Positions 10,827 to 27,887 of a stretch of DNA of 64,000 nucleotides are shown piece after piece. Position 1 is the stretch's first letter. Each line of letters opens with the position of its first letter. The stretch covers positions 21,304 through 85,303 of the forward strand of contig CAWJWM010000014.1 of assembly GCA_963846445.1 (NCBI GenBank), written 5' to 3'. The DNA comes from an uncultured Verrucomicrobiae bacterium. Lineage in GTDB: Bacteria; Verrucomicrobiota; Verrucomicrobiia; Limisphaerales; J093. The translations under genes and the position numbers were made by a program. A model generated the notes under the pieces. The model searched no databases and was not told the DNA's origin. It saw only the letters and a list, made by a program, of their open reading frames with translations.

Positions 10827-10828
10827 TA

Positions 10829-10949: not shown

Positions 10950-11156
10950 GCCAAGCAGAGTGCGATCCCGAAATTCCTGGCGCGTCAAACCATGAGACGA
11001 CCAAGCCCAGCCCTATTCAGCACATTGATTCTCGTGCAGAAAGGAGCCGACGCGTCGCCGACAGACGCCGCAGCGCGCCAGCAACTCGGCATTGGCGGAC
11101 ACCACACCACGGCGGTGGTGGTCAAGTGGAAGTAGAGCGTCGTTCAACACCGAGCC

Positions 11157-12396: not shown

Positions 12397-13421
12397 TCCG
12401 TGTTTTCGTGCGAGGTGCCGGAGCGGTATCACCGGCAGGCTGGGGTGTCGAACCGCTGCTCGCCGCGTTGCGCGCAGGAGCCCCAATCGCTTCTCATGAG
12501 CTGCGCGCGCCCTCGGGCGACCGCCGCTTCCCAGCCCGGCTTGTTCCGGCGCCGGCGCCGCGTCCGGCCTGGCTGGCGCATCCGCGCCTGCGACGGGCGA
12601 GCGGCGTTTCGCAGTTTGCACTCTCTGCCGCACTCGAAGCACTCGGGCCTTGGCCGGGGAGCGCCCCGAAGGAAACGCGCCTGGGCATTGTCACCGGCAC
12701 TCACACCGCCTCGATCCGCTACTCGGAGCGCTTCTTCGGCGAGGTTCTGCAGAATCCGGCGACTGCGAGCCCGATGCTTTTTCCGGAGACAGTGATGAAC
12801 GCCCCCGCCAGCCACATAGCGGCGTTCCTGGGTTGTTCAGGTCTTTGTTACAGCCTGGTCGCCGATCAAACGGCCTTTGTCCAGGCGGTGCTCGTCGGCT
12901 GCCAATGGCTGGGCGATGACCGGGTCGACGCCTGCCTGGTTGTTGGCATGGACGAAGCCGCGTGGCCCCTGGCGGATGCGCTTGGGCACTTTGCGCCCGG
13001 TCTCGCTTCGAGCGAGGGCGCCGGGGCGCTGCTGCTCACGCGCCAGCCCGACACCCCACCCGCAGTCGAGCTGAAATGCATCACCGACGCCCACCTCTAT
13101 GCGGCGGCTGCAACGAGGGAGCCCGCTGCGCGCGCGATGCGCAGCCAGTTGCCCGCCGAAAGCCCCGGTGAGTTGCTGGTGGATTCGCGGTGCGGAGCGG
13201 CCCGCCCGGACCGCGCGGAGAGACTCGCCTGGGCCGGCTGGCACGGCGCCGTCGTCTCGCCCCGTTCGGTGCTCGGCGAGGGGCTGTGCGCCGCAACCGC
13301 CTGGCAATTCGTGGTCGCCCGCGCCTTGTTAATGGATGGCTCGGCGCGTGCAGCGAACATCAGCGTCGTCGGCTCCAACCTCCAGGCCGTCGGCGCCCGG
13401 TTCGAGCTGGCTGAGGAGTGA
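12387..13421 (+). CDS. beta-ketoacyl synthase-like protein lacking the catalytic cysteine (chain-length-factor-like partner)
   Basis: KS-fold length and pattern. The position equivalent to the ACAS active site reads LVADQTA. Overlaps the upstream KS by 10 nt. Confidence 0.7.
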   Translation: MAMIRVFVRGAGAVSPAGWGVEPLLAALRAGAPIASHELRAPSGDRRFPARLVPAPAPRPAWLAHPRLRRASGVSQFALSAALEALGPWPGSAPKETRLGIVTGTHTASIRYSERFFGEVLQNPATASPMLFPETVMNAPASHIAAFLGCSGLCYSLVADQTAFVQAVLVGCQWLGDDRVDACLVVGMDEAAWPLADALGHFAPGLASSEGAGALLLTRQPDTPPAVELKCITDAHLYAAAATREPAARAMRSQLPAESPGELLVDSRCGAARPDRAERLAWAGWHGAVVSPRSVLGEGLCAATAWQFVVARALLMDGSARAANISVVGSNLQAVGARFELAEE

Positions 13422-13469
13422 CAACACGCACCCTCCCGTGGCCCTGGCTCGGCCGCCTGCGGTTTTCTG

Positions 13470-13602
13470 GTGCATCTGGTTGTTGTCGGTGTTCTGTCGC
13501 CCGGTGAGGGCACCGGGCCTACAACGGATGGAGATTGCCGGTGTAGGCCGCGTGCCCCCACGCGGCGCATACTCGATTCCCACCGACAACCTCCAGATGC
13601 AC
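13470..13602. repeat. 133-nt element closed by a 22-nt imperfect inverted repeat and containing a module G copy (13500-13569)
   Basis: GTGCATCTGGTTGTTGTCGGTG (13470-13491) pairs with CACCGACAACCTCCAGATGCAC (13581-13602). Lies between the CLF-like and ACP genes. Confidence 0.7.
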
Positions 13603-13691
13603 TGGCGGTTTTTTGGCTGCGGTTTCCAGCTTGTTGCGGGGCTGTCCATGCCACAGACTCGATGCCCGAAACTGACGGCTGCACTTTCCAA

Positions 13692-13991
13692 ATGGAACCG
13701 ACAGACGCGCTCAAGGCAGAAATCAAGCAACTCCTCGTTGCCAATCTCATGCTGCAGGTGTCCGAGGACCAGATCGGCGACGATACCCCGCTGTTCGGCT
13801 CCGGGAGTCTGGGGCTCGACTCCGTAGACGCCCTGCAAATCGTGGTCGCGCTCGACAAGCAGTACGGCTTGAAAATCTCCGACCCGGGCGCCGCCAAGCA
13901 GGTGCTCGAAAGCGTTTCGGCGATCGCGACCGCCGTCCGCAAACACCAGGAGCAACAGACCGGTCCGGACACGGACGAGGCGGAATCCTGA
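13692..13991 (+). CDS. acyl carrier protein
   Basis: About 99 aa with the phosphopantetheine-site motif LGLDSVDALQIV. Confidence 0.85.
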   Translation: MEPTDALKAEIKQLLVANLMLQVSEDQIGDDTPLFGSGSLGLDSVDALQIVVALDKQYGLKISDPGAAKQVLESVSAIATAVRKHQEQQTGPDTDEAES

Positions 13992-14000
13992 GAAGCGATG

Positions 14001-14056
14001 AGCGAGGCTGCGCCTCGAACCAGCGAGGCGTGTTGCCAGATCGTTCGCGAGGGTCT
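14001..14056 (+). repeat. module F' (short F variant)
   Basis: AGCGAGGCTGCGCCTCGAACCAGCGAGGCGTGTTGCCAGATCGTTCGCGAGGGTC. The reverse complement of 63560-63618 is nearly the same. Confidence 0.75.
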
Positions 14057-14155
14057 TTCGTCTAAGAAAGAGACCGGTCGCGTGTCTTGATAGGTGAAGC
14101 TTGCGGCAGCAGAGGGAGCGAAACGAAAGCGGCGACGCGGTGATCTAACCAACGA

Positions 14156-14722
14156 ATGGCGACCGTGCGATCAGACCCAGCGGGGGCCGCGTCCCCGAAG
14201 CCCGAGTCCGTCGAAGACCTGTTTGAGGCGCTTGAATCGCCGCTCTTGGGTTATGCCCTCCGGCTCCTGCCCGATGCCGACGCGGCCGAAGATGTTGTCC
14301 AGGAAGCATTCATGCGCTTGCATACCCATTTTGCCGAGGTGCGCGAACCCCGGAGTTGGCTTTACCGGACCACCCATAACCTCGCGCTCAACCACCAACG
14401 CAGGGCGAAGAAGATCGTCCCGCTCGACTCGAGTGGAAATCGCGCCGGAGACGGACCAGACCCAACAAACGACCCGCCCGATCCGCAGCCGCTTCCGGAC
14501 GAACAGACCGCCCGGTGGGAAGGGATCGGTTTGGTGCGTGTGGGGTTGGCGGCCCTCGACACACGCGCGCGCGAACTGGTCGAACTCAAGTTCCACGAGG
14601 ACCTCTCTTACAAGGAAATCAGCGCCCGCACCGGCCTGTCCGTCAGCAATGTCGGGTATATCCTCCATCACGCACTGAAATCTCTCGCCGCCGAGCTCGC
14701 CAAAGCCGGCCTTGTCCCATGA
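14156..14722 (+). CDS. ECF-type RNA polymerase sigma-70 family factor
   Basis: Region 2 (DVVQEAFMRLHTHF, WLYRTTHNLALNHQRR) and region 4 (ELKFHEDLSYKEISARTGLSVSNVGYILHHALKSL). Confidence 0.9.
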   Translation: MATVRSDPAGAASPKPESVEDLFEALESPLLGYALRLLPDADAAEDVVQEAFMRLHTHFAEVREPRSWLYRTTHNLALNHQRRAKKIVPLDSSGNRAGDGPDPTNDPPDPQPLPDEQTARWEGIGLVRVGLAALDTRARELVELKFHEDLSYKEISARTGLSVSNVGYILHHALKSLAAELAKAGLVP

Positions 14723-17700
14723 ACCCAAACAAGCCTTCACCGCCGCCGGACGACTTCGAGTCGAAGATCACGGCGTTGTTGCTGGGCGAATTGGCGCCCG
14801 CCGACGCCCGCGCGGTCGAGCGGTCGATCGCTGCCGACCCGGCCCTGGCCGCGCTGCGGGATCGTCTCCAGAACACAATGTCGTTCGTTCGCGATGCCGT
14901 GACGCAGCCGGTCGGGTCCGCCGCTGCAGGCGCGGTGCAGCCGCGGTTGTCGGACAAACGGCGCGAAGACTTGACGCGCCAATTCAAGCTCGTCGCCCGC
15001 CCGGAACGGTCAGCGTGGGAACGCCGCTGGCTGGCGTGGTTGGTGCCCATGACCGCCGCGGCGGCGCTGGTCGTCATCGCAGCCCTTTTTCTCCCCGCCT
15101 TCGGCAAGGCGAAGAGCAAGAGCCAATCGGTCGCCTATCGACGACCAGGCACGCCCGCTCCTCGCCTCATCACGCGTCTGGGCGTCGAGGTTCCCAGCCC
15201 GGCGCCCAACGCCGAGTCTCTCGAGAGGATCAAAACGCTGCCAGCCCTGCAGACGCGGCTTGCGCGAGGCCACGCGGTGCGCCCAGCCGACGAGCCTGAC
15301 CGCGGCGCGACTGAGGCCAAAGTCCGCGAGTTGTACGATCAAACGGACGGCGACGCCACCGCTGCTCCCATCGATCCGACAACCGGGCTGCCTGTTGTCG
15401 CAGAGTCGGCAGTTGCGCCCGAAGCGGAGTGGGTCCGGATGGAAACGGCTCAACCCGCGCCGACGTCAAGTCGGGAGGGAGTCGAGACGGCGGCCAAGGC
15501 GGGATCAGGCGAGGTTGAGTCGGCCCGGCCCATGACCGATATTCGGATGTTGATGCGCTATGGGCTTCTGCCCAAGGGGCTGAAACTCGTCGAAGAAGCG
15601 GGTGAGTCGGCTGGGGCCACCATCGCGGCTAAGTTCGCCGAGGGGCCGCAGGCGGATGCGAGCAGCCTTGCCGAGAACGCCCCCGCGCAACGACAGCCCC
15701 TGGCGAAGGCGGCAACACCGCCCGCACCCGCCCAGAGTGAACTCGCCCCGCTGCCGCTCGAATTGCCGCTCCCGGCCTTCATGGGCACGCCGACTGACTT
15801 GGCATTCGCGGATGGCGCCCCCAAAGACAAGGCCAAGGCGCCCGAGTCCGCGGGCGTGGGGGAGTTGGCACAAGCGACATCCTGGGGGGAGACAGCCCCA
15901 GGCTTCCCAGGAGTCCGGGAGGATTATTGGTTCTTCGACGCAGAAGCGGCAGGCGGCGTGCAGGTTCATCGCACCGACTCGAGTGGGATGGGAGGGATGG
16001 GAGGGATGGGAGGTGGCGGGATGATGGGCGGAATGGCAGGTGCCGGCGGCGGGGGCGGGTTGGGTGGATTTGGCGGTATGCAAGCCGCTGGTGATCGGAG
16101 TGCGGGGGACTTCGATCTCGGCCAGCAGGTCAAGACCGACCAGCGTGCCGATCCCGCCAAGGATCTCTTCTCCACAATCCGGGCTAAGACCGGTGACTCG
16201 GATTCGGCTGGTCGTCCCGCCAGGCGGGCCGCGGCCCCTGTCTCGGCTCCGGCCACACCGGTGCCGACAACTCCCGTCCCACCCCCCTCGAACGCGCCGC
16301 CGCCGCCCTCATCGGACACCAGGGCGAGCACGGAGCGTTCCGCCGCGGGCTACTATGCATACGGGCTTTCCGCACAGAAAGGCGTCACTGAATTGGCCAA
16401 GGTGCCGGTGCTGGGCGACGTCCCGTTGATCGGCGCCGAGTTCAGATCCTCCACGGTTGAACCCGAGTCCCTGGGGCGTCCCACCAGGGCGCTGGCGAAC
16501 GAGCCAGAAGCCGTCGGCGCACTCGCACCCAGCGCCGGCAAACCCACCGATTCGAGCGTTCGCCGCTTGACCGTGGCCAGGGGCGAACAACGCGGTCGGG
16601 CCCGGGGTTTGGAGCCGCAGCCCTCGGCGACGGAACGCCAGATGGCCGACGAGGATGGGGCGCTTGACCGACTCGGCGAGTCCGAAGGCACACTGCGTGA
16701 TGGCCGACTCGATGTTCTGGCCGTCAACGGTGTCCAGGAGGGCGCCGCGGTGGACGCGCAGGCCGTCACGACGTTTGACGCAACCGCGGCGGCATCCGGC
16801 CTGATCACCAACGCGATGGGGTCTTTCGGGGCGGTCACGTTCGCTGCGCAGGAGGAGGTTACGAACCGCAAAGAAAAGGTCGCCAGTCGACCGGCTGCGC
16901 CGCCGCCCGAGCCACAGCCCGAAGTGGCAACCGCCAGCAATCCGTTCTCGACCTTCTCGCTGAACGTGACCGATGTGTCATTCAAGCTGGCGGGCGCCAG
17001 CCTCGAGCAAGGGGCGCTTCCGGACGCCTCGCGCATCCGCAGTGAGGAGTTCCTCAACGCCTTCGATTACCGCGATCCGGAGCCGGTGCGAGGCGCCCCC
17101 GTCGCGTTCGCTTGGGAGCGGGCCCGCTACCCTTTCGCCCACAATCGCGAGGCGATTCGTTTTTCGGTGCAGACCGCCGCGCGCGGGCGTTCGGCCCTGC
17201 GCCCGCTCAATCTCGTGCTGCTGCTCGACAGCTCGGGCTCGATGGAACGGGCCGATCGCGTCGGCATCGTCCGCGAAGCGCTGACGGTGCTGGCTGCGCA
17301 ACTCAAACCCCAGGACCGCATCAGCGTCGTCGCCTTCGCCCGCACAGCGCGGCTTTGGGTGGATGGCGTGCCGGGCAACCAGGCCAACGAGGTGCTCGAG
17401 CGGATCAGCCAGCTCACGCCCGAAGGCGGCACCAACCTCGAAGACGCATTGAAGGTTGCCTACGAAACGGCAGCGCGCCATTTCGTCAGCCACGGCGTGA
17501 ACCGGGTGGTGCTGCTCACCGACGGCGCCGCCAACCTGGGCGATGTCGATCCCGAATCCCTGCAGCGGAAAGTCGAGTCATCCCGAAAGCAGGGGATCGC
17601 GCTCGATTGCTTCGGGATTGGCTGGGAAGGGTACAATGACGATCTGCTCGAAGTGCTCTCGAGCCACGGCGACGGACGCTATGGATTCGTGAACAGCCCC

Positions 17701-18246
17701 GAGGAAGCCGCCACCGAGTTGGCGGGGCAATTGGCTGGCGCGCTGCAGGTTGCCGCTGCCGACGTCAAGGTCCAGGTCGAGTTCAATCCGCACCGCGCCA
17801 CCGCCTGGCGCCAGATCGGGTACGCCAAACACCAACTCACCAAGGAACAATTCCGCGACAACACGGTCGATGCCGCCGAGTTGGGCGCTGCCGAATCGGG
17901 CAACGCCGTTTACATCCTCGAAGTCAATCCGCGTGGCCAGGGCGACATCGGCACCGTGCGCGTGCGCTACCGCGAGGCGTCGAGCGGCCTTTATCGCGAG
18001 CACGCCTGGCGGGTGCCCTACACCGGCCCGGCGCCGCTGCTCGAACAGTCCAGCCCGGCCATGCGGTTGGCCGTCAGCGCGGTCGCCTTCGCCGAATGGC
18101 TTGCCTCGAGTCCGTTCGCTGGCGAGGTCACGCCGGACAAACTGCTCGGCACGATGTCCGGCGTGACCGACGCGTTCGGGCCGGACGCCCGCCCGAGACA
18201 ACTCGAAGCCATGATCCGCGCAGCCAACTCGATCAGCGGACAATGA
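14719..18246 (+). CDS. membrane-anchored anti-sigma-like protein with long disordered linker and C-terminal vWA (YfbK-like) module
   Basis: The ATG overlaps the sigma stop (ATGA). Anti-sigma-like N-terminus (ITALLLGELAPADARAVERSIAADPALAA) and one TM (WLAWLVPMTAAAALVVIAALFL). Also SEEFLNAFDYRDPEP, the MIDAS motif LLLDSSGSM, EGGTNLEDAL and VVLLTDGAAN. Confidence 0.8.
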   Translation: MNPNKPSPPPDDFESKITALLLGELAPADARAVERSIAADPALAALRDRLQNTMSFVRDAVTQPVGSAAAGAVQPRLSDKRREDLTRQFKLVARPERSAWERRWLAWLVPMTAAAALVVIAALFLPAFGKAKSKSQSVAYRRPGTPAPRLITRLGVEVPSPAPNAESLERIKTLPALQTRLARGHAVRPADEPDRGATEAKVRELYDQTDGDATAAPIDPTTGLPVVAESAVAPEAEWVRMETAQPAPTSSREGVETAAKAGSGEVESARPMTDIRMLMRYGLLPKGLKLVEEAGESAGATIAAKFAEGPQADASSLAENAPAQRQPLAKAATPPAPAQSELAPLPLELPLPAFMGTPTDLAFADGAPKDKAKAPESAGVGELAQATSWGETAPGFPGVREDYWFFDAEAAGGVQVHRTDSSGMGGMGGMGGGGMMGGMAGAGGGGGLGGFGGMQAAGDRSAGDFDLGQQVKTDQRADPAKDLFSTIRAKTGDSDSAGRPARRAAAPVSAPATPVPTTPVPPPSNAPPPPSSDTRASTERSAAGYYAYGLSAQKGVTELAKVPVLGDVPLIGAEFRSSTVEPESLGRPTRALANEPEAVGALAPSAGKPTDSSVRRLTVARGEQRGRARGLEPQPSATERQMADEDGALDRLGESEGTLRDGRLDVLAVNGVQEGAAVDAQAVTTFDATAAASGLITNAMGSFGAVTFAAQEEVTNRKEKVASRPAAPPPEPQPEVATASNPFSTFSLNVTDVSFKLAGASLEQGALPDASRIRSEEFLNAFDYRDPEPVRGAPVAFAWERARYPFAHNREAIRFSVQTAARGRSALRPLNLVLLLDSSGSMERADRVGIVREALTVLAAQLKPQDRISVVAFARTARLWVDGVPGNQANEVLERISQLTPEGGTNLEDALKVAYETAARHFVSHGVNRVVLLTDGAANLGDVDPESLQRKVESSRKQGIALDCFGIGWEGYNDDLLEVLSSHGDGRYGFVNSPEEAATELAGQLAGALQVAAADVKVQVEFNPHRATAWRQIGYAKHQLTKEQFRDNTVDAAELGAAESGNAVYILEVNPRGQGDIGTVRVRYREASSGLYREHAWRVPYTGPAPLLEQSSPAMRLAVSAVAFAEWLASSPFAGEVTPDKLLGTMSGVTDAFGPDARPRQLEAMIRAANSISGQ

Positions 18247-18261
18247 ACGGAAGGCATAACG

Positions 18262-21200
18262 ATGACTACCTCCACAACACACCCTCTGTTGCAGGGGCAT
18301 GTAGGCCGCGTGCCGTCACGCCACGCGATTTCTGCCGCTGGGCATGGCGCCGCACTCTTGGCCTTGTGGCTAACGGCCATCGCCTTCGCAGGCGATCCCG
18401 CCCCAGCGCCCGCCCCGGCCTCGGCGCAGACGCCTGCAGCCACGAGCGTCGCGGACCCGCCGACCATCGTCGAAGTCAACAAGATCGCCCTCGACGGCCA
18501 ACTCGACGCCGAGAAGGCCCGTCTCGTGATCGAGGCGGACCTGCGCGGGCTCACGCCGGCGCGTGACAAATCCATCTACAGCGCAGTCGTTCGCCAGGTC
18601 ATCGGTGTGGCGCGCGAGAAGCTCACCCACGCCATTTCAGTGCAAATCGAGGCCGTCCAGGGTGAATTGAAAGAGGTTGTCCTCCCCTTGTCCGGGGTGG
18701 GCGAGATCAAGCAGGTCACGAGCGATCAGCTTGAAGACTGGAGCGTCCGGCAGGCGCCCGGCGGCGCCCGCGCCCTCGTCCTGCGCGTGAAGAAGGCGGA
18801 GCAGCCGGTCAAGTCGCTCGCCGTCCAGATCGCCGCTGTAACGCCGTTGGGCGATCTCCCGCAAACGGTCACGCCGCTGGCTCTGGTTGGGGAACCGGCG
18901 TCTCTGAGCCATGGCTACGTGCGCATCGACACCCCGTCCGAACTCGCAATTCAACTCGGCAATCCCACCGGCGTGGCGCCGCTCGAATTGGGATTCCTGC
19001 CTGAGGATCTGCGCCCGACCGCGACGCCGGGCGGTCCCGAGGCTCTCGCGTTCCGCTTTCACGGCACAGCGTACGCCTTGCCCCTGACGCTCGCGGCGGC
19101 CGACCCGGAGGCATCCCGTGTCGTGCTCCATCAGTTTCGTTTGCGGGGCCGGCTCAGCGGCGATCAAGCGGCTTTTACATTGAACGCGGTCGCCCGGGTC
19201 AAGAATCCGAAAGGCGGCTCGCTGGCCCTGCTGTGGGGGCGTGCCGCGCTCACCGAAGTCAACTCGACAACCAACTGGCAATGGAAACTCGAAGGAGACA
19301 AGTATGTGGCGCGGTTCGACCGTGCGGGGGTGTACCCGCTTCAGCTCAAGTTCAACGCCGCGGTGCGCCAGACCAACGGCTGGAACGAGATCGATTTCGT
19401 CGTCGCACCCGGCGGGCCGGCCCCGGTGACGTTCGAGGGCTTGAAAGCCGACACCCAGTTCCGGTTCACCGACGCTGCCCGGCCCGAACTCGCGGGTGAT
19501 GAGTTTGTGAGTTTCCTTCCGCCGACCGGCCAGGTGCGGCTTGGGTGGAAAGAAGCCCGGCCCGAAACCGAGGGGACACTGTTCTACGCCGCGGAGGCAT
19601 GGTCGCAGATCGCGATCAGCCCCGGCCTGATGCGGCAGACTGCGCTGCTGGATTTCAAGGTGATGCAGGGCGAACTCAACCGCGTCGCGCTGCGCCTGCG
19701 GGGCGCCGGCGAGGTCACGCGCGTGCAAGGACCAGCCGTGCTGGCCTGGGCCGTCGAGGCGGTTCCCGAGACTGCCGAACGCCGTTTGACAGTGCAATTG
19801 AACCAGGCCCAGAAGGATCAATTCTCGTTTCAGGTCCAGTTGCAGACGCCGCTGGGCGCGTTCCCCCAAGCCGTTGACGCGATGCAGGTGCTGCCCGAGG
19901 GCACCACCCGGTTCGGCGGCTACTTCCGCGTCGTCAACGAAGGCGCCGTGCGCCTCGAAGTGGTGCAGGCCAGCGGCCTGTCCCAGATTTCGCCCGAGCA
20001 ATTTCCGCAGACCGAGGCCACCAAGGCGCTTCTGTCGGAGCAGACCACACAGATGTTTGCCTACCGTTTTTCGGGGGGCGCGTTCGAGTTGCGGGTGCAG
20101 GCGGACAACATCCTGCCCGAGTTGGCGGTGTCGGCGGTGCTGTCGTATCACCTCGGCGAGACCGAGTTGGCGATCGACGCCGAGTTCGAAGTGGACGTGC
20201 GCGAGGCCCCGTTGCGCGAGATGGTGCTGCGTGTCCCAAAGGGCTATGCGGTGGCGCGTCTGAACGCGCCTGGTCTTAGCGACTATTTCCCCACTGAGAG
20301 CGCCGACCAGCCCGACGCCCAAATCCGGCTGGTGTACGGCAGCCCCGTTTCGGGCCGACAGGCTGTGCAGTTGCGTCTCGAACGCAACCAGCCCCTGGCC
20401 GAATCCGCCTGGCGCCTGCCCCGGATCGACGTCGTGAAAGCGAAATCGGTGCGCGGACACGTGGGCGCCACCGCGGACGCCGGCTTTCGCCTGACGCCCG
20501 GCGCGACCCAAGGGCTGACCGAGATCGCCGGGGCGTTTTTTCCAAGAAAGCTGGCCAACATTCAGGCTGCTTTCCGCGTGAGCGACGCGGCGTGGCAGGC
20601 GACGCTGAACGTCGAGCGACTGCCGCAGTCGATCCAGGCCGATGTGTTCCACCTGTTTTCGATTGGCGAGGGCATTGCCTACGGCAGCAGCATCATCAAT
20701 TACGTCGTTTCCGGCGCGCCGATCGCGACTTTCCGGATCGAGTTGTCGGGGGAGTACTTCAACCCCGAGTTCACCGGCAAGGATGTGCGGAGCTGGCAGA
20801 AGACCGATGGTGGCTACCAGGTTCAATTGCACACGCCGGTCGCCGGAGCGTACACGTTGCTGGCCACCTACGAGCGTCCGTTCAAGGCCCAGGGCGAAAC
20901 CCTCACCTTCGCCGGCGCGCGCCCGCTCGACGCGCAGTCGGAACAGGGCCACACGATTGTCGTGAGCGCCTACCAGTTCCAGGTGGAGCCGGTGAACCTC
21001 TCGAGTTCGCTGCTGCCGCTCGAAACGGGCGAAGTGCCCCCCGAATACCGCCTGTTTTTCGACGCGCCGATCCTCGCCGCGTACCGCTACACCGCGCGCC
21101 CCTTCAACCTCCAGCTCGAGTTGAAGCCGCTGGCCCAAGGCGAGACCATCCGCCAGGTCGTGGACCGCGCATCCCTCACCACACGGATCTCGGACGAGGG

Positions 21201-24200
21201 CCAAGTGGTCACCGACGCCCGCTACTTCGTGAAGAACAAGGGCGCGCCCCATCTCCGCGTCGTCATTCCGGAAGGAACCCAGCTCTGGTCGGTGACCGTC
21301 AATGGCGCGCCGGTCGTCCCCGTGACGAGCGACCGCGCGCATCTGATCCCGCTGCCGCAACACGCCGATGCCAACGCGGTCAACGACCTGCAGATCAAAC
21401 TGGCCGCCCGCGCCAAGGATCGCCAGCGCCTCACCGTCGCCGCCCCGGTCGTGTCCGCGCCCGTGCTGCTCGCCGAATGGCATCTGATCCCCGACACATC
21501 CCGGCGATTGGTCTATCGCCGAGGCCCATTGACGCCGGTCGGCGGTGTGATGGACATCGCCGGATTCGGAGGCCTGCGGCGTCTGCTCGCAGGCGAAACC
21601 CGCGAGCGCCTGCTGTTGGGCCTGGGGATGGCCTTGGCGATGACGATCATCGCCGTCTGGGTTTGGCGTTGGGCGAGCAGCCAAGGCGTGCAGAAGTTCG
21701 CGCTCCGCCATCTCTCGGGCGGCGTCGTGGCGCTCCTGGCGGTCGTCATGGTCGTTGTCATCCTGATGCAGCTCGTCGAGTTGGCCGGGGCAGCCAGAAT
21801 CGAGTCTCCCCGTGAACTGCGTTTCCTCGCTCCCGTCCAACAGGCGGACAGTGCGCTGGCGCTCGATGTCGCCAACGTGCCGTTGTCGCCTTCCTTGTTC
21901 GCCCTGGCATGGGCGCTGGCCCCGGCGGTGCCTGGCGTCCTCCTCTGGCTCTATTCGCTGGTCAGCGCGCGGGCTTGGTCGCGGATCCTCGCGCGGGTGC
22001 TGGGTTGGGTGTTGATCCTCTGGGCCGCGCTGCGCTGGCCCAATGGCGCGCCCCTGTTCTTTGGGATGCTGCTCGCCTTTGCGCTGCTTCACGTGTTCCT
22101 GCCGTGGTTCTGGCGCTGGTGGCACGCGCCCCGCAAACCCAGCCCGGACGCAGGAGGCATCGCGGCGACCACCGCACTGCTCATGCTCGGGGCCTGGTTG
22201 TTGCAGCCGGACGCGGCCCTGGCTCAATCTGTGCCAGCCACTGCGCCGGCGACGGAGAAGACGCCTCCCCTGGCCGAGTCCGTGATCCAGGACATCCGCG
22301 TCGAAGACCAGCATGCCATCGGATCGGCCCGAATCCGGTGGCAGGCGCGCAAAGGGGAAATCCTGCCCTTGCTACATGCGCCCGGCGTTTTGACACGGAT
22401 CGAGTACCCGACCAACCGCGCGCGGCTGGTCCAGGTGCCGGTGGCGGATTGGCGCGACCCGGCATTGCTGGCGGAGCAGACGGGGCTGTGCGACATCCAA
22501 CTGGAATACCAAGTGCAGACCGCCAGCCGCGAAGGAGAGCGTGGCTTTGGCCTGCCGACCGCGCATGGCCTGGTGAACCGCGTGACGCTCACGCTGGTTG
22601 GACTCGATGTCGAGTTGAACGCCCCCCAGGCGGTCTCCGTGCAACCCGACGCTTCAGGCCCATCCACCAACACCGTTGGGCGCTTGGTGCTGGCGCCGAC
22701 GCCCAACCCCTGGATCGGATGGCGACCCCGCAGCCGCGACACGCGGCTCGAGAAAGCAGTGTTTTATGCCGAGTTGAGCCAGCTCTACGTGCCCGGCGCC
22801 GGCGTCGTCGAGGGGTTGCATCAAGTCCAATTGCGGCCCGCACAAGGCGAACTGAGCGAACTCACGTTCGATGTGCCGTCGGGTTCGACCATCACGGATG
22901 TTGTGGCGCCGGGGCTCTCCCTGTGGCGATTCGATCCTCAGACCGGGCAGTTGCGGGTGCGTCTCACGCCGGCGCAGGCCAAGCCGTTCAGCGTGCTGGT
23001 GAAATCCCAGATCGCGACCGGTCCATTGCCCTTCGAGCAGACCGCCGGCCTGCTCGGCGTCCGAGGGGCGGCGGGACAACTGGGGCTGCTGGGAGTCGCC
23101 ACAGGCAACGAAGTGCAGTTGGACGACGTGCGCGCCGAGGACCTCTCCCCGATCAACCTCGAGGATTTTCCGGGCGCCGTGCTCGATCCCCTCCGCCCCG
23201 CCCTCCCCGGCCTGACGTTGCGTCGGGCCTTTCGGTACGCGGAGGCGCGGTCCACGGTGGCGCTCCGGGCGTCCGCCGTCGAGCCGGACATCCGTGTCGA
23301 GACCCAGCAGACGTTGTCTCTGGGCGAAGATCGGACGGTGCTGGCCGCCAACATCGAGGTCGAGGTGACGCGCGCCGGCATCTTCAAGCTGAGCTTCGTC
23401 CTGCCGGACACCCTCGACGTCGAGTCCATCAGCGGGGGCGTCTTGAGCCATTGGACCGAACTCAAGACCGATGCGGGGCGCGTGGTCACGCTGCATCTCA
23501 AGAGCAAGACGGAGGGCAAACAGACGTTCGCCGTCAGCCTGGCTGGGCCTGGAGTGCGAGCCGCGACGGGCTGGGCCGTGCCGCGCCTCAGTGTGCGCGA
23601 GGCGGGCAAACAGCGGGGGCAGTTGTTGATCGTGCCCGAGCAGGGCTTGCGTCTCCAGGTCGCCACGCGCGAAGGCGTGACCCAGCTTGACCCGCTCAAA
23701 GCCGGCGTCCGGCAGAAAGGCGTGCTCGCGTTCCGGCTCCTGCAATCGGACTGGCGCCTGGCCATGGATCTCGAGCGCGTGGATGCCTGGACCCAGGTGA
23801 CCAGTCTGCAGCACGTTGTCATTGGCGACGCGCAACTCAAGGTCGCCGTCAATCTCCAGTACGAAATCGAAAACACCGGCATCAAGGTCCTCGGGATCCG
23901 GCTGCCGGCCAACGCCGAGGGCGTCCGATTCCGCGGCGATCAAGTGGCGGATTTCCGCCCGCTCGAAGGTCCGACCAACACCGCCACCCGCGATTGGGAG
24001 GTCAAGCTCAACCGCCGCGTGATCGGCAAATACCTGCTTCAGGCCAACTACAGTTTGTCCATCCCCGAGCAGGCCGTCGAGACGGGCATCGTCGGCGTCG
24101 AAGCTCGGGACGTGAACGTGCAACGCGGATTCCTGACTGTGCAGGCCAGCGGGCGCTTGCAGGTGCGCCCCGACGCCCCGGCCGAATCCCTGCAACCCGC

Positions 24201-25413
24201 CGAATGGCAGTCGATCCCGCGCGCGCTCCAGCAGGATGTCGCCGCCACCGCCGCCAACTACACGTTCCGGCTGGTCGAGCCAGCCTACCGCCTGCCGGTG
24301 CGGATCGAGCGGCACGCTGCCGCCAAGCTGCTCCCAGCGCGCGTGCACAACGTCACGCTCACCTCGGTTGTGTCCGATGACGGGATCCTGCTCACCCAGG
24401 CGCGACTCGAGTTGGTGCCCGGCGACAAGCGGTTGCTGCATTTGATCCTGCCGGAGCGGGCGCGTTTCTGGTTCGCCTTTGTCAACCAAAGCAGCGTCTG
24501 GCCCTGGCGCGAGACCAACCAGGTGCTCATCCCGCTCGAACAACACTCGAAGACCGGCCAGTCCACGACCGTCGAGTTCTTCTATTCCGTCCAGGCCGGC
24601 ACCGCCCGGACACGCGCGCTCGACCTCGACTTAGTGGGCCCGCAGTTCGATCTCCCGCTCGAGAACATTACCTGGCGCATTTACCTCGGAGAACAATGGA
24701 AGCTCACGGACTGGAAAGGCGCGCTCCAACTCCAGGAGCAGCAACTGCTGGACGCCGGAGCTGCGATTGACCTCGAGACCTATGTGCGCAACGAAACGAC
24801 TCTCCAGCAGGAGAAAACCAGGGAGGCCGAACAGCTCCTCAGCATGGCCAATCGCCTGCTGGTCGAGGGCGATCCCGAACAGGCGCGCCGGGCGTTCACC
24901 ACGGCGTACGGCCTCTCCCAACACGACGACGCCTTCAACGAAGACGCCCGCGTCCAACTGCACAACCTCAAAATGCAGCAGGCGCTGGTCGGTCTGAACG
25001 TGCGCCAGGCCAAGGTCGCTGGGGAACCGGCGACCCTCGCCGCGACCCCGCGCAGCATGCGCGAAAGCCAGATCGCCAACTACACCCAGCAGGAAGCCAA
25101 ACAACTGATCGAACGGAATACCGCCGAAGACAACGCCTTTCAGATGCGCCTGGCCGAACGGCTCATCCAACAGCAGGACGCCGCCACCGCCAGCCCGGCC
25201 GCTATTCGGGCCACCGTCCCGGAACATGGCCGCCTGTTGACGTTCACCCGGCCCCTCGAAGTCGATCCCTGGGCCGATCTGAACCTCCATCTCGAAGCCC
25301 GTATTGTCCGGCCCACCGGCTTCTTCTTCCGCCTGGGCATCCTCATCGGCATGGTGGTCCTGGTCGCCCTGCTCGCCTGGCTCGGGCGCGCGAAACCAAC
25401 GGCAAGCAGGTGA
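18262..25413 (+). CDS. giant (2383 aa) membrane protein of unknown function: two homologous ~1000-aa extracytoplasmic modules separated by a TM cluster, plus a C-terminal coiled-coil-like region and TM anchor
   Basis: Uninterrupted ORF with GGAAGG 8 nt upstream of the ATG. Signal-like HGAALLALWLTAIAFAG. TM cluster ~21610-22210 and a terminal TM at 25321-25386. Confidence 0.8.
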   Translation: MTTSTTHPLLQGHVGRVPSRHAISAAGHGAALLALWLTAIAFAGDPAPAPAPASAQTPAATSVADPPTIVEVNKIALDGQLDAEKARLVIEADLRGLTPARDKSIYSAVVRQVIGVAREKLTHAISVQIEAVQGELKEVVLPLSGVGEIKQVTSDQLEDWSVRQAPGGARALVLRVKKAEQPVKSLAVQIAAVTPLGDLPQTVTPLALVGEPASLSHGYVRIDTPSELAIQLGNPTGVAPLELGFLPEDLRPTATPGGPEALAFRFHGTAYALPLTLAAADPEASRVVLHQFRLRGRLSGDQAAFTLNAVARVKNPKGGSLALLWGRAALTEVNSTTNWQWKLEGDKYVARFDRAGVYPLQLKFNAAVRQTNGWNEIDFVVAPGGPAPVTFEGLKADTQFRFTDAARPELAGDEFVSFLPPTGQVRLGWKEARPETEGTLFYAAEAWSQIAISPGLMRQTALLDFKVMQGELNRVALRLRGAGEVTRVQGPAVLAWAVEAVPETAERRLTVQLNQAQKDQFSFQVQLQTPLGAFPQAVDAMQVLPEGTTRFGGYFRVVNEGAVRLEVVQASGLSQISPEQFPQTEATKALLSEQTTQMFAYRFSGGAFELRVQADNILPELAVSAVLSYHLGETELAIDAEFEVDVREAPLREMVLRVPKGYAVARLNAPGLSDYFPTESADQPDAQIRLVYGSPVSGRQAVQLRLERNQPLAESAWRLPRIDVVKAKSVRGHVGATADAGFRLTPGATQGLTEIAGAFFPRKLANIQAAFRVSDAAWQATLNVERLPQSIQADVFHLFSIGEGIAYGSSIINYVVSGAPIATFRIELSGEYFNPEFTGKDVRSWQKTDGGYQVQLHTPVAGAYTLLATYERPFKAQGETLTFAGARPLDAQSEQGHTIVVSAYQFQVEPVNLSSSLLPLETGEVPPEYRLFFDAPILAAYRYTARPFNLQLELKPLAQGETIRQVVDRASLTTRISDEGQVVTDARYFVKNKGAPHLRVVIPEGTQLWSVTVNGAPVVPVTSDRAHLIPLPQHADANAVNDLQIKLAARAKDRQRLTVAAPVVSAPVLLAEWHLIPDTSRRLVYRRGPLTPVGGVMDIAGFGGLRRLLAGETRERLLLGLGMALAMTIIAVWVWRWASSQGVQKFALRHLSGGVVALLAVVMVVVILMQLVELAGAARIESPRELRFLAPVQQADSALALDVANVPLSPSLFALAWALAPAVPGVLLWLYSLVSARAWSRILARVLGWVLILWAALRWPNGAPLFFGMLLAFALLHVFLPWFWRWWHAPRKPSPDAGGIAATTALLMLGAWLLQPDAALAQSVPATAPATEKTPPLAESVIQDIRVEDQHAIGSARIRWQARKGEILPLLHAPGVLTRIEYPTNRARLVQVPVADWRDPALLAEQTGLCDIQLEYQVQTASREGERGFGLPTAHGLVNRVTLTLVGLDVELNAPQAVSVQPDASGPSTNTVGRLVLAPTPNPWIGWRPRSRDTRLEKAVFYAELSQLYVPGAGVVEGLHQVQLRPAQGELSELTFDVPSGSTITDVVAPGLSLWRFDPQTGQLRVRLTPAQAKPFSVLVKSQIATGPLPFEQTAGLLGVRGAAGQLGLLGVATGNEVQLDDVRAEDLSPINLEDFPGAVLDPLRPALPGLTLRRAFRYAEARSTVALRASAVEPDIRVETQQTLSLGEDRTVLAANIEVEVTRAGIFKLSFVLPDTLDVESISGGVLSHWTELKTDAGRVVTLHLKSKTEGKQTFAVSLAGPGVRAATGWAVPRLSVREAGKQRGQLLIVPEQGLRLQVATREGVTQLDPLKAGVRQKGVLAFRLLQSDWRLAMDLERVDAWTQVTSLQHVVIGDAQLKVAVNLQYEIENTGIKVLGIRLPANAEGVRFRGDQVADFRPLEGPTNTATRDWEVKLNRRVIGKYLLQANYSLSIPEQAVETGIVGVEARDVNVQRGFLTVQASGRLQVRPDAPAESLQPAEWQSIPRALQQDVAATAANYTFRLVEPAYRLPVRIERHAAAKLLPARVHNVTLTSVVSDDGILLTQARLELVPGDKRLLHLILPERARFWFAFVNQSSVWPWRETNQVLIPLEQHSKTGQSTTVEFFYSVQAGTARTRALDLDLVGPQFDLPLENITWRIYLGEQWKLTDWKGALQLQEQQLLDAGAAIDLETYVRNETTLQQEKTREAEQLLSMANRLLVEGDPEQARRAFTTAYGLSQHDDAFNEDARVQLHNLKMQQALVGLNVRQAKVAGEPATLAATPRSMRESQIANYTQQEAKQLIERNTAEDNAFQMRLAERLIQQQDAATASPAAIRATVPEHGRLLTFTRPLEVDPWADLNLHLEARIVRPTGFFFRLGILIGMVVLVALLAWLGRAKPTASR

Positions 25414-25452
25414 GATGCCCGGCTCTGAACGAAAACACGGAGATTGCGCGGG

Positions 25453-27676
25453 ATGAACCGGCGTCAGTTCCTGCAGGCGGGCGCGGTGGCCGGGGTCGCC
25501 CTGCGCACGGCGGGGCGATCCCGGGCGGACGAAGCCGCTGCGGTTCGCCCGTTCGCATTCGATCCCAGCCAGAACCTCATCCCCGCACCGCGGAATCCGA
25601 GCCAGTGGGAAACGTTTCGCAGGCAACTCGCAGCCTGGCGCGGCGCGGCGCGGCGTGAACTCGATTACGCCGACGCGCTGTACCGGCGACCGGATTTCGC
25701 GTGGGTCTCGCGTTGCTTTTCGTGCTGCTTCCTGATGCTGTGCGACGAGCGCTTCTACGATTCCCACTCGGGGCGATACCGTGTCGAGACCTTCCTCGCA
25801 GATGCCGACCTCGAGTTTGGCGGGTTCGACGGCGTCGTGCTCTGGCACGCCTACCCGCGCATTGGCGTGGACGACCGCAACCAGTTCGATTGCTATCGGG
25901 ACCAGCCCGGCGGCCTGGCGGGGCTGCGTCAGGCAAGCCGGTGTTTTCATCGTCACGGCGTGGCCGTCTTTGTCGACTACAACCCGTGGGACACGGGCAC
26001 GCGTCGGGAAGGCCGGAGCGACCTCGACGCGCTCGCCCAGATTGTGGGAGCGATCGAAGCCGACGGCATTTTCCTCGATACGATGAGTCAGGGTGCGGCC
26101 GAGTTCCGGGCCAGGCTCGACTCGGTGCGTCCGGGGGTCGCCCTCGAAGGCGAACTCGCCCTCCCGCTCGAGACACGTCCACGATCATCATCTCTCCTGG
26201 GCGCAGTGGTTCGACGACAGCGAGACACCGGGCGTGCTGCGGAACAAGTGGTTCGAGCGGCGCCACATGCAGCACCAGATCAAACGCTGGCACCGCGACC
26301 ACACCGGCGAACTGCACTGCGCCTGGATGAACGGCAGCGGCATGATGGTCTGGGACAACGTGTTCGGTTCGTGGGTTGGCTGGTGCGAACGTGACAAAGC
26401 CATCCTCCGTTCCATGCTCCCCATCCAACGCCGCTACGCCGATCTCTTCTGCGGCGAAGGATGGACGCCCTTGGTCGCCACCGAACAGGCCGGCATTTAT
26501 GCGAGTTTGTGGGAGTTGCCCGGTCGCCGTCTCTGGACGCTCGTGAACCGGACGACCAAGCCGGTCGAAGGCGCGCTCTTGCGCGCGGTGTTGAACCCAG
26601 GCGAGCGGGTCTACGACTTGATCCGGGGCGGCCCGGCGCCAGTGAGAATGCAGGCGCAGGCCGCGAGCAAGACCGACGTCGCAAGCGGACCGATCGCCTG
26701 GAGCGGAGCGGAGTCCACTGCCGTCGAGGGCCGCATTCCCGCCCGCGGAATCGCCGCGTTTCTCGCCGCCGATCGCCGGCACCTGGGCGGGAGCTTCAAA
26801 CGATTCCTGCGCCGACAAGCGCAAACCAGCGCGCGGGCGAGCGATGACACGGCCTTCCCGGCACGATCGGCTGTGCTGGTCGTGCCGGACCGGGTGGTGA
26901 GCCCCGCGGTTGCGGCGCCGCCGCAGATGGTGGGGATTCCCGGCATTCGTTTCACGCTGCGCTCGGTTTTCCGGCTGCGCGAGTGCGGGTGCTACGAATC
27001 GGTCCACACCCACTTCTCCGCCGGGGGCAGCCCGAAATTGCACGAGCCGATCGCGTTCGAACGCGAAGTCACTCTGACGCCTTATGCCATCGACTTGACA
27101 CCGGTGACCAACGGACAGTTCGCGCGGTTTCTGGAACAATCGGGGTATCGCCCGCGACACCGCGAGAACTTCCTCAAACATTGGCGCGCAGACAGTCCTC
27201 CTCCGAAGCTTCAGGATCATCCGGTGGTCTACGTCGACCTGGAAGACGCCCGGGCTTACGCCCGCTGGGCCGGCAAGCGGCTGCCGACGGAAGCGGAATG
27301 GCAGCACGCCGCCCAGGGACCAGACGCGCTCCGTTTTCCCTGGGGCAACGAGTTCGATCCAAACCGCTGCAATGCCGGCGCGCAGGGAGGCACCACGAGC
27401 ACCACGGCATTTCCCAACGGACGGAGTCCGTTCGGGTGCTATGACCTGTGCGGCAACGTCTGGGAACTGACCGAGAGCGAACGCTCGGACGGCAGCACGC
27501 GTTTCTGTTTGCTCAAGGGAGGCTCGTTCTTCCGGGCGGAGGGATCGGCTTGGTACTTTGATGGCGGACCGCAGCCCAACGCGTTTGTCGTCAAGTTGCT
27601 GCTCGCATGGCCAGGGCTCGACCGGTGCGCGACGATCGGTTTTCGGTGTGCCGTGGACATGGCCCTCGCTCGCTGA
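25453..27676 (+). pseudogene. TAT-signal protein: N-terminal TIM-barrel/glycosidase-like domain fused to a C-terminal FGE-sulfatase (SUMF1-like) domain; one apparent +1 frameshift near 26173
   Basis: MNRRQFLQAGAVAG twin-arginine signal. The path ..EGELALPLE (frame 1) continues as HVHDHHLSWAQWF (frame 2). C-terminal motifs VTNGQFARFLEQSGY, RLPTEAEWQHAA, GNVWELT and IGFRCAVD. Confidence 0.75.
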
Positions 27677-27887
27677 CCTCGGACCGACCGCCCTGCAGGG
27701 TACCCTCAGCCCACATTTTTCGTGAAAGAACGGCGGGGCCATGGTATTCCGCGCTCACGAACCACGAACCAGCCGAGTCGGTCCGCCGCAGTCGACTGTC
27801 TGAACCGACGCGAGCGCTCAGCGGACAGACGCCTGGGGCAGAGCGTGCGCACCGCAAGACTCGGTGGGGCGGAACGAACATGAGCCT

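Follow-up and report, generated by a model that had tools for sequence, protein, structure and literature searches.

The three adjacent genes were best explained as one conserved operon, in which a dedicated ECF sigma/anti-sigma pair is encoded together with its main cargo, a giant membrane protein. On balance, we favor a self-regulated operon for an envelope response, with the giant protein as the probable conserved and co-transcribed target of the sigma factor, and we take this reading with moderate confidence. The features were located as follows in the window, which is the whole 64-kb stretch of DNA that was analyzed.

14059–14089, + strand: conserved ECF-type candidate promoter, with box 2 CGTCTAAGAAA, N12, and box 3 GTGTCTTG, 67–97 nt 5' of the sigma ATG
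14156–14722, + strand: ECF (group 4) sigma-70 factor gene, 188 residues
14719–18246, + strand: anti-sigma gene, with ATG at 14719 and stop codon at 18244–18246
14719–15114, + strand: anti-sigma N-terminal cytoplasmic domain and single transmembrane (TM) helix (residues 1–132; TM residues 103–132), beginning in the ATGA overlap
15115–16908, + strand: periplasmic low-complexity tether of the anti-sigma factor (residues 133–730, ~600 residues)
16924–18156, + strand: vWF_A/VWA/YfbK_C head of the anti-sigma factor with intact MIDAS (residues 736–1146)
18249–18254, + strand: GGAAGG ribosome-binding site of the giant gene, 7 nt 5' of its ATG (direct sequence reading)
18262–25413, + strand: giant membrane-protein gene, 2,383 residues, with ATG at 18262
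18391–21597, + strand: module 1 (residues 44–1112), a predicted periplasmic beta-sandwich array of about six units of ~170 residues
21598–22221, + strand: central hydrophobic helix cluster (residues ~1113–1320; hydropathy scan)
22255–24750, + strand: module 2 beta-sandwich array (residues 1332–2163), the hhalign paralogue of module 1 residues 283–1093
24772–25185, + strand: helical, weakly TPR-like domain (residues 2171–2308), membrane-proximal in module 2 (AF2 helices)
25303–25398, + strand: C-terminal TM anchor (residues 2348–2379), followed by a short basic tail (hydropathy)

Conservation of the triad and its candidate promoter

The TGA of the sigma gene and the ATG of the anti-sigma gene shared the sequence ATGA at 14719–14722, and the giant gene began 15 nt after the anti-sigma stop codon behind its own GGAAGG. 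Both readings agreed with the original prediction, and its proposal that the three genes form one unit gained support from the retained ATGA, from a single promoter element 5' of the sigma gene, and from synteny. The triad was found in 57 of 57 Verrucomicrobiota loci, counting the informative loci with sufficient upstream sequence, and the 4-nt overlap was retained in most of them. It was also retained in Kiritimatiellia-like relatives and in four of seven deep-branching loci (L081, L082, L086, and L088), where the giant protein was only 24–31% identical. The neighborhood survey that had been called for showed the gene order to be kept in every informative related locus, and the adjacency of the three genes is therefore beyond chance. 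The genes flanking the triad were not conserved. Two short loci in which the triad seemed to be missing carried insertions of accessory genes or other DNA.

The triad was still kept in two marine loci whose giant gene was divided into two. The module 2 protein of these variants opened with its own signal peptide at the position of the central cluster, and their coding sequences showed that the two giant arrays can be produced as separate polypeptides. Among the deep-branching loci, the giant gene had no adjacent sigma gene in L080 and L083 and no vWA anti-sigma gene in L083, L087, and L089, and a different ECF sigma/anti-sigma pair, divergent, adjoined it in L087 and L089. Across the loci, the presence or absence of the vWA anti-sigma factor was not paralleled by the gain or loss of any domain of the giant protein.

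The promoter element had the pattern CGTCTAAGAAA-N12-GTGTC, preceded by a box 1 that was GGAGCA in relatives and degenerate in the window. The three-box element had canonical ECF geometry, with an ambiguous box assignment, as box 1/box 2 and box 2/box 3 both suited this geometry. It was the sole match in the window, where chance alone predicts none. In 37 related loci the element occurred once per locus, always 5' of the sigma gene; it was never located 5' of the giant gene in triad loci, even with 1–3 kb of inserted genes. From this layout we infer that the sigma, anti-sigma, and giant genes are co-transcribed and that the operon is autoregulated.

In metagenomes, 94 of 113 contigs with the element had a sigma orthologue downstream. 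The other 19 copies, on contigs not tied to genomes carrying the triad, preceded other genes, which mostly encoded signal-peptide proteins. These included seven alpha-2-macroglobulin genes (MG2, 4.7e-18; bMG3, bMG6, and A2M_BRD) and genes for CarboxypepD_reg proteins. As a cross-check on the predicted regulon, a small secreted protein encoded behind the motif (L198) was 54 and 41% identical to the products of genes inserted within the operons of L054 and L019, respectively. In L083, L087, and L089, the sequence GGAGCA-N15-CGTC was located directly 5' of the giant gene (P ~5e-8, estimated from the background rate). Since an ECF-type promoter directly precedes the giant gene where the vWA anti-sigma factor is missing, the sequence data suggest that a dedicated ECF sigma factor has the giant gene among its direct outputs.

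The sigma factor and its vWA-type anti-sigma factor

The sigma factor was a small ECF (group 4) protein containing regions 2 and 4 only (Sigma70_r2, 1.8e-14, residues 22–86; Sigma70_r4_2, 6.2e-11, residues 131–177), and it matched the NCBIfam model TIGR02937 (ECF) at 4.7e-23 (81.6 bits; cut-off, 42.9). Its orthologues, present in all triad loci, were 51–79% identical. The N-terminus of the anti-sigma factor was conserved across 38 orthologues, and the protein matched NF052375 ('anti-sigma') weakly (E 6e-8, 32.9 bits, under the cut-off of 100). The HxxxCxxC zinc motif of ZAS class I anti-sigma factors was absent from the window protein, because its only cysteine is residue 964; deep-clade orthologues in L081 and L086 matched zf-HC2. 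Searches of Pfam and NCBIfam gave no FecR domain (PF04773) in the anti-sigma factor, and no TonB-dependent receptor was encoded in the operon.

The tether was rich in Ala, Gly, and Pro and was unconserved, with an identity of 0.1–0.3 and many gaps among the 38 orthologues. Its length varied, and the orthologous anti-sigma proteins ranged from 796 to 1719 residues. The spacer had been described as of low complexity, which was correct, and as ~700 residues long, whereas about 600 residues were found. The short motifs RYGL and PVLGDxPxxGxxF were present in 21 and 11 of the 38 orthologues, respectively. A secretin assignment of the tether (PF00263) was rejected, as just 33 residues (549–581) matched and their score of 17.1 bits was under the cut-off of 27.5.

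The head was composed of vWF_A (PF12450, residues 736–811), VWA (PF00092/PF13519, residues 831–999; 2.8e-16), and YfbK_C (PF12034, DUF3520; residues 1008–1146; 5.1e-25), and this domain order identifies it as YfbK-like. The vWA domain contained the DxSxS...T...D sequence of a functional MIDAS, and the residues D837-x-S839-x-S841, T905, and D935 were invariant in 38 of 38 orthologues. The head as a whole was 65–92% identical among orthologues. Pfam, the TM scan, and the invariant MIDAS thus bore out the predicted architecture of a sigma-binding N-terminus, a single TM helix, and a YfbK-like vWA module with an intact MIDAS. The structures of the vWA domains of ITIH4 and ITIH1, which differ in being eukaryotic serum proteins, were the nearest solved ones to the anti-sigma vWA domain. 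The same vWF_A (PF12450), VWA, and YfbK_C cassette forms E. coli YfbK, but the latter stands alone, lacks an anti-sigma domain, and has no known function.

The pairing of an ECF sigma factor with a vWA-type anti-sigma factor is already catalogued as ECF289 and is uncharacterized. In ECF classification 2.0, the anti-sigma factor of ECF289 at position +1 has an extracytoplasmic part made up of DUF3520 and a von Willebrand domain in fusion (PMC7826278). The group is defined by bioinformatics only, without a known signal or regulon (Casas-Pastor et al. 2021, PMC7826278), and no giant +2 gene is mentioned for it in the text of that paper (PMC7826278). The likeness to ECF289 rests on the same +1 anti-sigma architecture (VWA and YfbK_C, which is DUF3520). 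The statement that no characterized system has such an architecture therefore stood in part: the vWA/DUF3520 anti-sigma factor is not unprecedented (PMC7826278), whereas ECF289 itself is uncharacterized. The triad and the giant family appear to be undescribed.

The giant membrane protein

No family had been recognized for the giant protein, and the HMM searches agreed, as it had no match in Pfam, NCBIfam, PADLOC, or PDB sequences. Its 566 full-length relatives were all labeled 'hypothetical', none with a Pfam domain, and the family comprised 2,424 clusters at 50% identity (E<1e-3). The protein was internally duplicated (BLASTP E 2e-37; hhalign probability 100, E 2e-80, 801 columns). The AF2 models of module 1 (mean pLDDT 85.6), with repeat offsets given by hhalign, and of module 2 (mean pLDDT 85.5) were both all-beta. 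Foldseek gave generic matches for module 2; for module 1, it matched individual domains only, to integrin alpha legs, ribophorin I, and macroglobulin arrays (TM-scores ≤0.17).

The central cluster contained four to six TM segments, the last of which was signal-peptide-like and ended in ALA-QS, and this layout recurred in relatives at 25% identity. The C-terminal TM segment corresponded to an AF2 helix at model residues 1065–1086 and was also present in distant relatives. The models showed a protein predicted to be anchored in the inner membrane by the central helix cluster and the C-terminal helix, with two paralogous arrays of about 5–6 beta-sandwich units each predicted to face the periplasm. 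This agreed with the forecast of two beta-rich modules outside the membrane, both arrays being all-beta (pLDDT ~85) and on the periplasmic side. The TPR-like domain, with sub-threshold matches to TPR_16 and designed TPR proteins, contained the highly conserved block AFNEDARVQLHNLK. The giant protein was 52–82% identical to its orthologues over all 2,383 residues, compared with 51–79% for the sigma factor. The high conservation of the giant protein, the vWA head, and the MIDAS argues for conserved protein partners.

Strings of extracytoplasmic beta-sandwiches, anchored in the inner membrane or membrane-proximal, are also found in bacterial alpha-2-macroglobulins and integrin alpha legs, a likeness at fold level from per-domain Foldseek matches. 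Since the TM-scores were ≤0.17, it reflects domain type and not homology. An identity as a bacterial alpha-2-macroglobulin was rejected, as neither the whole protein nor ten segments matched MG2, bMG, or A2M at E≤10; a thioester-containing form was rejected as well, because the single cysteine (residue 1410) leaves no CxEQ. An integrin alpha subunit was rejected because the protein had leg-type sandwiches only, with no FG-GAP Pfam match and no beta-propeller, and BatD (PF13584) because none of the protein segments hit that domain, even with the limit set at E≤10. The giant protein had no outer-membrane, autotransporter, sortase, or T9SS signal.

Proposed mechanism and alternative explanations

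By analogy with characterized ECF systems, the single-pass anti-sigma factor would use its N-terminal domain to keep the sigma factor at the cytoplasmic membrane, and its periplasmic vWA/YfbK_C head, on a tether that is long, disordered, and variable in length, would act as the sensor. A change in the state of the sensor would inactivate the anti-sigma factor, and the freed sigma factor would transcribe its own operon from the CGTCTAAG...GTGTC promoter. The result would be more giant protein and a small regulon of exported proteins, among them alpha-2-macroglobulin-family, CarboxypepD_reg-domain, and small secreted proteins. The module reads as a PVC-specific response for maintenance or protection of the cell envelope, and the protection theme is drawn mainly from the alpha-2-macroglobulin members, whose genes carry the same promoter motif as the triad, and from the export signals.

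The proteobacterial RpoE-RseA-RseB(-RseC) envelope-stress system has an autoregulated ECF sigma factor, transcribed together with a single-pass anti-sigma factor and a downstream periplasmic protein, and an envelope-protein regulon. The triad resembles it in the sigma factor, the single-pass anti-sigma factor, the downstream envelope-protein gene, and the predicted exported-protein regulon. However, RseA and RseB have no sequence relation to the triad proteins (Pfam, NCBIfam); the triad sensor is a MIDAS-bearing vWA head on a ~600-residue tether, and RseB is a small soluble lipid/LPS binder, whereas the downstream triad protein is a 2,383-residue membrane protein. In the FecI-FecR-FecA cell-surface signaling system, the envelope protein is under the control of the system and also sends signals to it. 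There, too, the genes for a sigma factor, a single-pass regulator, and a large envelope protein lie side by side, but the triad has neither a FecR domain nor a TonB-dependent transducer, and its giant protein is in the inner, not the outer, membrane.

It is plausible that the giant protein is also the ligand of the vWA head, with feedback control. A sensor complex of this kind, as the original prediction had proposed, is a tentative alternative that can coexist with the self-regulated operon. An acidic residue of a giant beta-sandwich unit would complete the MIDAS, and docking or undocking would set the stability of the anti-sigma factor, as RseB does for RseA and FecA for FecR, so that the sigma factor would signal how much of the giant array is present or whether it is intact. 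The strict co-occurrence of the vWA anti-sigma and giant genes, with spacing typical of co-transcription, down to 24–31% giant identity is consistent with such a complex, and the invariant MIDAS and highly conserved head suggest a conserved protein ligand. In L083, where the vWA anti-sigma factor is missing, a VIT-VWA gene pair had the same promoter that precedes the giant gene, and the tether is probably long enough to span an array of ~30 nm. Against the complex, no giant domain tracked the presence of the vWA anti-sigma factor, the giant gene also occurred with non-vWA anti-sigma factors (L087 and L089) and alone (L080), and vWA anti-sigma factors of ECF289 type are catalogued with no mention of a giant partner.

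A more elaborate arrangement, which we regard as improbable, is a new type of periplasmic surveillance device, PVC-wide in its distribution. Here the twin beta-sandwich array would be the docking site of the MIDAS head, so that a vWA subunit and a leg-type subunit pair much as in integrins, and the ~600-residue disordered tether would be a bait, cut once the periplasm is reached by foreign proteases or by damage to the envelope. Either cleavage or undocking would free the sigma factor, which would induce more array and alpha-2-macroglobulin protease traps, and a second ECF sigma factor acting at GGAGCA-N15-CGTC might feed the same operon as a cascade.

BatA/B with BatD is a pairing of vWA proteins with a beta-sandwich membrane protein, and the giant protein could in principle be a BatD-like partner of vWA proteins, of aerotolerance type or chaperoned by MoxR, with the sigma factor as a local regulator only. 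L087 has MoxR AAA_3, DUF58, and Transglut_core genes directly 3' of the giant gene, and in L081 DUF4159 occurs both as a gene and as an inserted domain. The MoxR, DUF58, and TGase genes were absent from all other loci, however, and together with the failure of the BatD search this makes the alternative unlikely.

The original prediction had also proposed cell-surface adhesion, with the giant protein displayed as an adhesin and the vWA domain binding an external host or matrix ligand. Although vWA domains and beta-sandwich arrays are common among adhesins, and Foldseek matched integrin alpha legs, we consider this very unlikely. The central hydrophobic cluster and C-terminal TM helix anchor the modules to the cytoplasmic membrane, facing the periplasm and with no surface-export signal of the types sought. 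The protein is conserved over its full length to the same degree as the sigma factor, unlike fast-evolving adhesins, and its gene occurs in free-living Verrucomicrobiota of sludge, soil, peat, lake, and marine habitats. Chance adjacency or an artefactual giant ORF, for which the many long spurious ORFs of high-GC DNA are the sole argument, was refuted by hundreds of full-length homologues, conserved synteny, and confident AF2 models of the modules.

Bacterial signaling relies on ECF sigma factors as a major route, yet most groups, including the vWA/DUF3520 anti-sigma type, have no known signal or output. The module provides a defined conserved partner, a concrete promoter motif, and a predicted regulon whose exported products include alpha-2-macroglobulins, and it brings in a very large unannotated protein family of over 2,400 clusters at 50% identity. 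The system can be tested directly in any culturable Verrucomicrobium carrying the triad. If the giant protein is a core element of the PVC envelope, it would also bear on how that unusual superphylum builds and monitors its envelope.

Organization and conservation of the predicted three-gene operon

The three open reading frames of the triad lay on one strand of the window, exactly at the coordinates claimed in the original prediction.

Genes of the triad (window positions)
14156–14722, + strand, ECF sigma gene
14719–18246, + strand, vWA anti-sigma gene, with its ATG overlapping the sigma stop codon (ATGA)
18262–25413, + strand, giant gene (2,383 aa), starting 15 nt past the anti-sigma stop, with a GGAAGG site 7 nt before the start

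The sigma protein matched Sigma70_r2 and Sigma70_r4_2 of Pfam and TIGR02937 of NCBIfam and, as judged from these matches, is a typical ECF factor. A genome scan returned 77 Verrucomicrobiota loci, and synteny was scored where the upstream DNA sufficed. The same-strand order of sigma, vWA anti-sigma and giant genes was found at all 57 loci so scored, including L001 and L002 (L-numbers denote related genomes or metagenome contigs, followed by positions within the locus), and most of them kept the 4-nt sigma/anti-sigma overlap. Loss of synteny, named in the original prediction as the main outcome that would contradict it, was looked for, and the gene order was kept at every Verrucomicrobiota locus scored. 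Two short loci apparently devoid of the vWA gene contained inserted accessory genes or repeat DNA. The genes flanking the triad were never conserved among the related loci. The triad is real and not an artefact.

About ten loci carried 0.4–3.3 kb of extra exported-protein genes between the anti-sigma and giant genes. Insertions were located at L002 6632–10014, L019 ~9375, L027 1–2256, L042 7439–9801, L054 ~9189, L056 7609–9775, and L067 8160–9918. Among the products of the inserted accessory genes were CarboxypepD_reg proteins, a family marked by WP[EK]G..L.N at the N-terminus, and a family of small proteins that was also encoded singly behind the promoter motif described below, in L198.

The giant family comprised 566 close full-length relatives with 57–81% identity, all labelled ‘hypothetical’, and 2,424 clusters at 50% identity (E<1e-3), most of which held proteins with two modules and a length of 2,100–2,400 aa. 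The named members belonged to Verrucomicrobiota, Kiritimatiellia, and one Planctomycetota MAG. The seven deep-branching relatives shared 22–31% identity in the giant protein. Four loci (L081, L082, L086, and L088) kept the triad. In L087 and L089, a different ECF sigma and a non-vWA single-pass protein, divergent, adjoined the giant gene, and in L080 and L083 the giant gene had no adjacent sigma gene.

In the Kiritimatiellae locus L081 (7238–8341 and 16938–18479), the anti-sigma spacer contained an inserted DUF4159 domain, which was 49% identical to an independent DUF4159 gene lying shortly after the giant gene. In L087, genes for a MoxR-type AAA_3 ATPase, a DUF58 protein, and a transglutaminase-core protein directly followed the giant gene (11958–16368). 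Both links were rejected as general features because each occurred in one locus only.

The triad was preceded on the same strand by an unrelated lipid or polyketide-like cluster (9474–13991).

Neighboring genes in the window
9474–10826, + strand, B12-binding radical SAM gene of the upstream cluster
11341–12396 and 12387–13421, + strand, ketosynthase pair of the upstream cluster
within 13470–13991, + strand, acyl carrier protein of the upstream cluster
25453–26394, Tat-signal ORF, starting 40 nt past the giant stop
26093–27676, ORF with a C-terminal FGE-sulfatase domain, overlapping the Tat-signal ORF in another frame
27864–28901, uroporphyrinogen decarboxylase gene, preceding the histidine kinase
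28871–31705, hybrid histidine kinase with several PAS domains, HisKA, HATPase_c, and a receiver domain

The Tat-signal and FGE-sulfatase ORFs may be one frameshifted gene. Neither these ORFs nor the upstream ketosynthases and acyl carrier protein were conserved at the other loci.

Domain architecture of the anti-sigma and giant proteins

The N-terminal ~100 residues of the anti-sigma were conserved and gave a weak, sub-threshold match to NF052375 (‘anti-sigma’), and deep-branching orthologues matched zf-HC2. A single transmembrane helix (residues 103–132) was followed by a spacer of ~600 residues rich in Ala, Gly, and Pro, which was unconserved and highly variable in length; the orthologues ranged from 796 to 1719 aa. 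The head was composed of vWF_A/VWA/YfbK_C (Pfam), and its closest solved structures were the vWA domains of ITIH4 and ITIH1. Residues Asp837, Ser839, Ser841, Thr905, and Asp935 of the metal-ion site (MIDAS) were invariant in 38/38 orthologues, and the site was intact.

Within the unconserved tether, two short motifs were observed that may be docking or cleavage sites. The first, RMLMRYGLLPKG (residues 276–287; window 15544–15579), had an RYG[LMVI] core in 21/38 orthologues. The second, the secretin-like VPVLGDVPLIGAEF (residues 562–575; window 16402–16443), was present in 11/38 orthologues and gave a sub-threshold match to Pfam Secretin; secretin membership of the anti-sigma was tested and rejected. 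A Gly/Met-rich tract, GMGGMGGMGGGGMMGGMAG... (residues 423–452; window 15985–16074), was seen in 5/38 orthologues, all of the clade to which the window belongs.

The giant protein had no match in Pfam and NCBIfam (whole protein), in Pfam with ten separate segments at E≤10, in PADLOC, or in the PDB by sequence and profile, with the sole exception that its C-terminal helices weakly resembled TPR repeats. The internal duplication claimed earlier was confirmed: residues 353–1035 aligned with residues 1405–2096 by BLASTP (E 2e-37), and profile–profile alignment of residues 283–1093 with residues 1332–2158 gave a probability of 100 and E 2e-80. Secondary profile alignments at offsets of ~155–190 and ~350 residues indicated that the modules were built of tandem units of ~170 residues, numbering about six in the first module and five in the second. 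An extra N-terminal unit (residues 44–283) was missing from deep-branching relatives, whether or not these had the vWA anti-sigma.

The AF2 models of both halves were confident, with mean pLDDT values of 85.6 and 85.5, and all-beta; at the end of module 2, a helical domain was followed by two strands and a transmembrane helix. Two Foldseek searches against the PDB gave per-domain matches only, with TM-scores ≤0.17, to integrin alpha legs, ribophorin I/Ost1, and macroglobulin/complement arrays. In the models, this likeness is one of domain type, a generic beta-sandwich, and not evidence of homology. Membership in the alpha-2-macroglobulin, BatD, and integrin families was tested and rejected.

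Hydropathy placed a signal or anchor at the N-terminus, a hydrophobic helix cluster in the middle, and an anchor followed by a basic tail at the C-terminus. The central stretch had four segments at the scan threshold, whereas visual inspection under the positive-inside rule assigned six helices. As both counts are even, the two modules would lie on the periplasmic side. The final helix of the cluster, before module 2 (residues ~1299–1323; window 22156–22230), resembled a signal peptide and ended in ALA-QS. In L084 and L085 (10001–13276 in both), one of them a marine (Tara) locus, the giant gene was split exactly at this point into two overlapping genes, the first encoding module 1 and the second module 2 with its own signal peptide. 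Therefore, the two arrays can function as distinct polypeptides. The fused protein may be processed internally at this segment.

Promoter element and predicted regulon

A strongly conserved element was found 5' of the sigma gene, consisting of box 1 GGAGCA(A), N15, box 2 CGTCTAAGAAA, N12, and box 3 GTGTCATA. The window copy (14059–14089), with a degenerate box 1, was the single match in 64 kb, where none was expected by chance. The element occurred once per locus, always before the sigma gene and never before the giant gene, even in loci with insertions, which fits a single operon promoter. An Rfam search of 13000–26000 gave zero matches, and RNAalifold found no conserved leader structure. Terminator and sigma-70 promoter scans were at chance level and uninformative. 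The window sequence was absent from the RNA runs searched, and the matching DNA runs all derived from metagenomes of activated sludge or similar sources.

Scanning metagenomes for box 2 together with box 3 gave 120 contigs, 113 of them with enough DNA to judge the next gene. A sigma orthologue followed the element in 94/113. In the remaining 19, the same extended element preceded other genes, most of which encoded signal-peptide proteins: seven alpha-2-macroglobulin-family genes (MG2 4.7e-18, bMG3, bMG6, A2M_BRD), three CarboxypepD_reg proteins, one prepilin/DUF1559 protein, and several small secreted proteins. The small protein encoded after the L198 motif was 54% identical to the in-operon gene of L054 and 41% identical to that of L019, and CarboxypepD_reg genes were also found inside some operons; these matches cross-validated the prediction. 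The alpha-2-macroglobulin members would give the predicted regulon an envelope-protection flavor.

In loci lacking the vWA anti-sigma, GGAGCA-N15-CGTC was found directly upstream of the giant gene (L083, L087, and L089). In L083, a second copy, with extended sequence identity, preceded a VIT-VWA/VWA gene pair.

GGAGCA-N15-CGTC sites
L083 9772–9796 and 23013–23037
L087 4916–4940
L089 7822–7846

With a background of about 34 matches in 3.6 Mb of strand, this placement, three in four loci, is very unlikely by chance (estimated at ~5e-8). Both the box 1/box 2 and the box 2/box 3 spacings were those of canonical ECF -35/-10 elements. Box 1 (≥5/6 matches) was kept in 80/98 sigma-operon copies, whereas it was kept in 3/15 other regulon copies. 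Tandem promoters for two sigma factors are possible from this arrangement. The GGAGCA-N15-CGTC sites and the box 1 of the main clade hint that these genes are also served by a second ECF sigma.

Predicted mechanism and relation to known systems

Beyond the gene organization, we infer a mechanism by analogy with characterized ECF systems. The sigma factor would be sequestered by the anti-sigma, an altered state of the vWA head would inactivate the anti-sigma, and the sigma factor would then drive its own operon and the motif-bearing genes. On this analogy, the giant protein is at least a conserved predicted output of a dedicated sigma factor. Giant proteins shared 52–82% identity, compared with 51–79% for the sigma factors. 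This sigma-like conservation and the inner-membrane anchoring argue for a structural or machinery function in the periplasm, involving fixed partners, and against the surface adhesin entertained in the original prediction.

An attractive extension is that the vWA head would also bind the giant protein through its MIDAS, in a putative feedback like that of RseB or FecA. Two observations favor such a ligand: the giant gene co-occurs strictly with the vWA anti-sigma, and L083 carries a co-regulated VIT-VWA pair. However, the giant gene was also paired with non-vWA partners, and no giant-protein domain co-varied with the vWA partner, which argues against an obligatory role. A search of the giant protein for a docking candidate, a domain restricted to lineages with the vWA anti-sigma, found none.

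The triad resembled RpoE-RseA-RseB and FecI-FecR-FecA in working principle but had the sensor domains of neither. The architecture of its anti-sigma, in which DUF3520 is joined to a von Willebrand domain, corresponds to the mark of ECF289, which is a catalogued group only (Casas-Pastor et al. 2021, PMC7826278). Literature searches on DUF3520, YfbK, and VWA anti-sigma factors yielded no characterized example of such an anti-sigma, and neither the giant family nor the triad was found described. The triad is an ECF sigma/anti-sigma module with an uncharacterized type of vWA sensor, tied across the PVC group to an unannotated giant family. The predicted promoter and regulon are new from this analysis, and the triad opens an unstudied ECF group and the envelope biology of the PVC group to testing.
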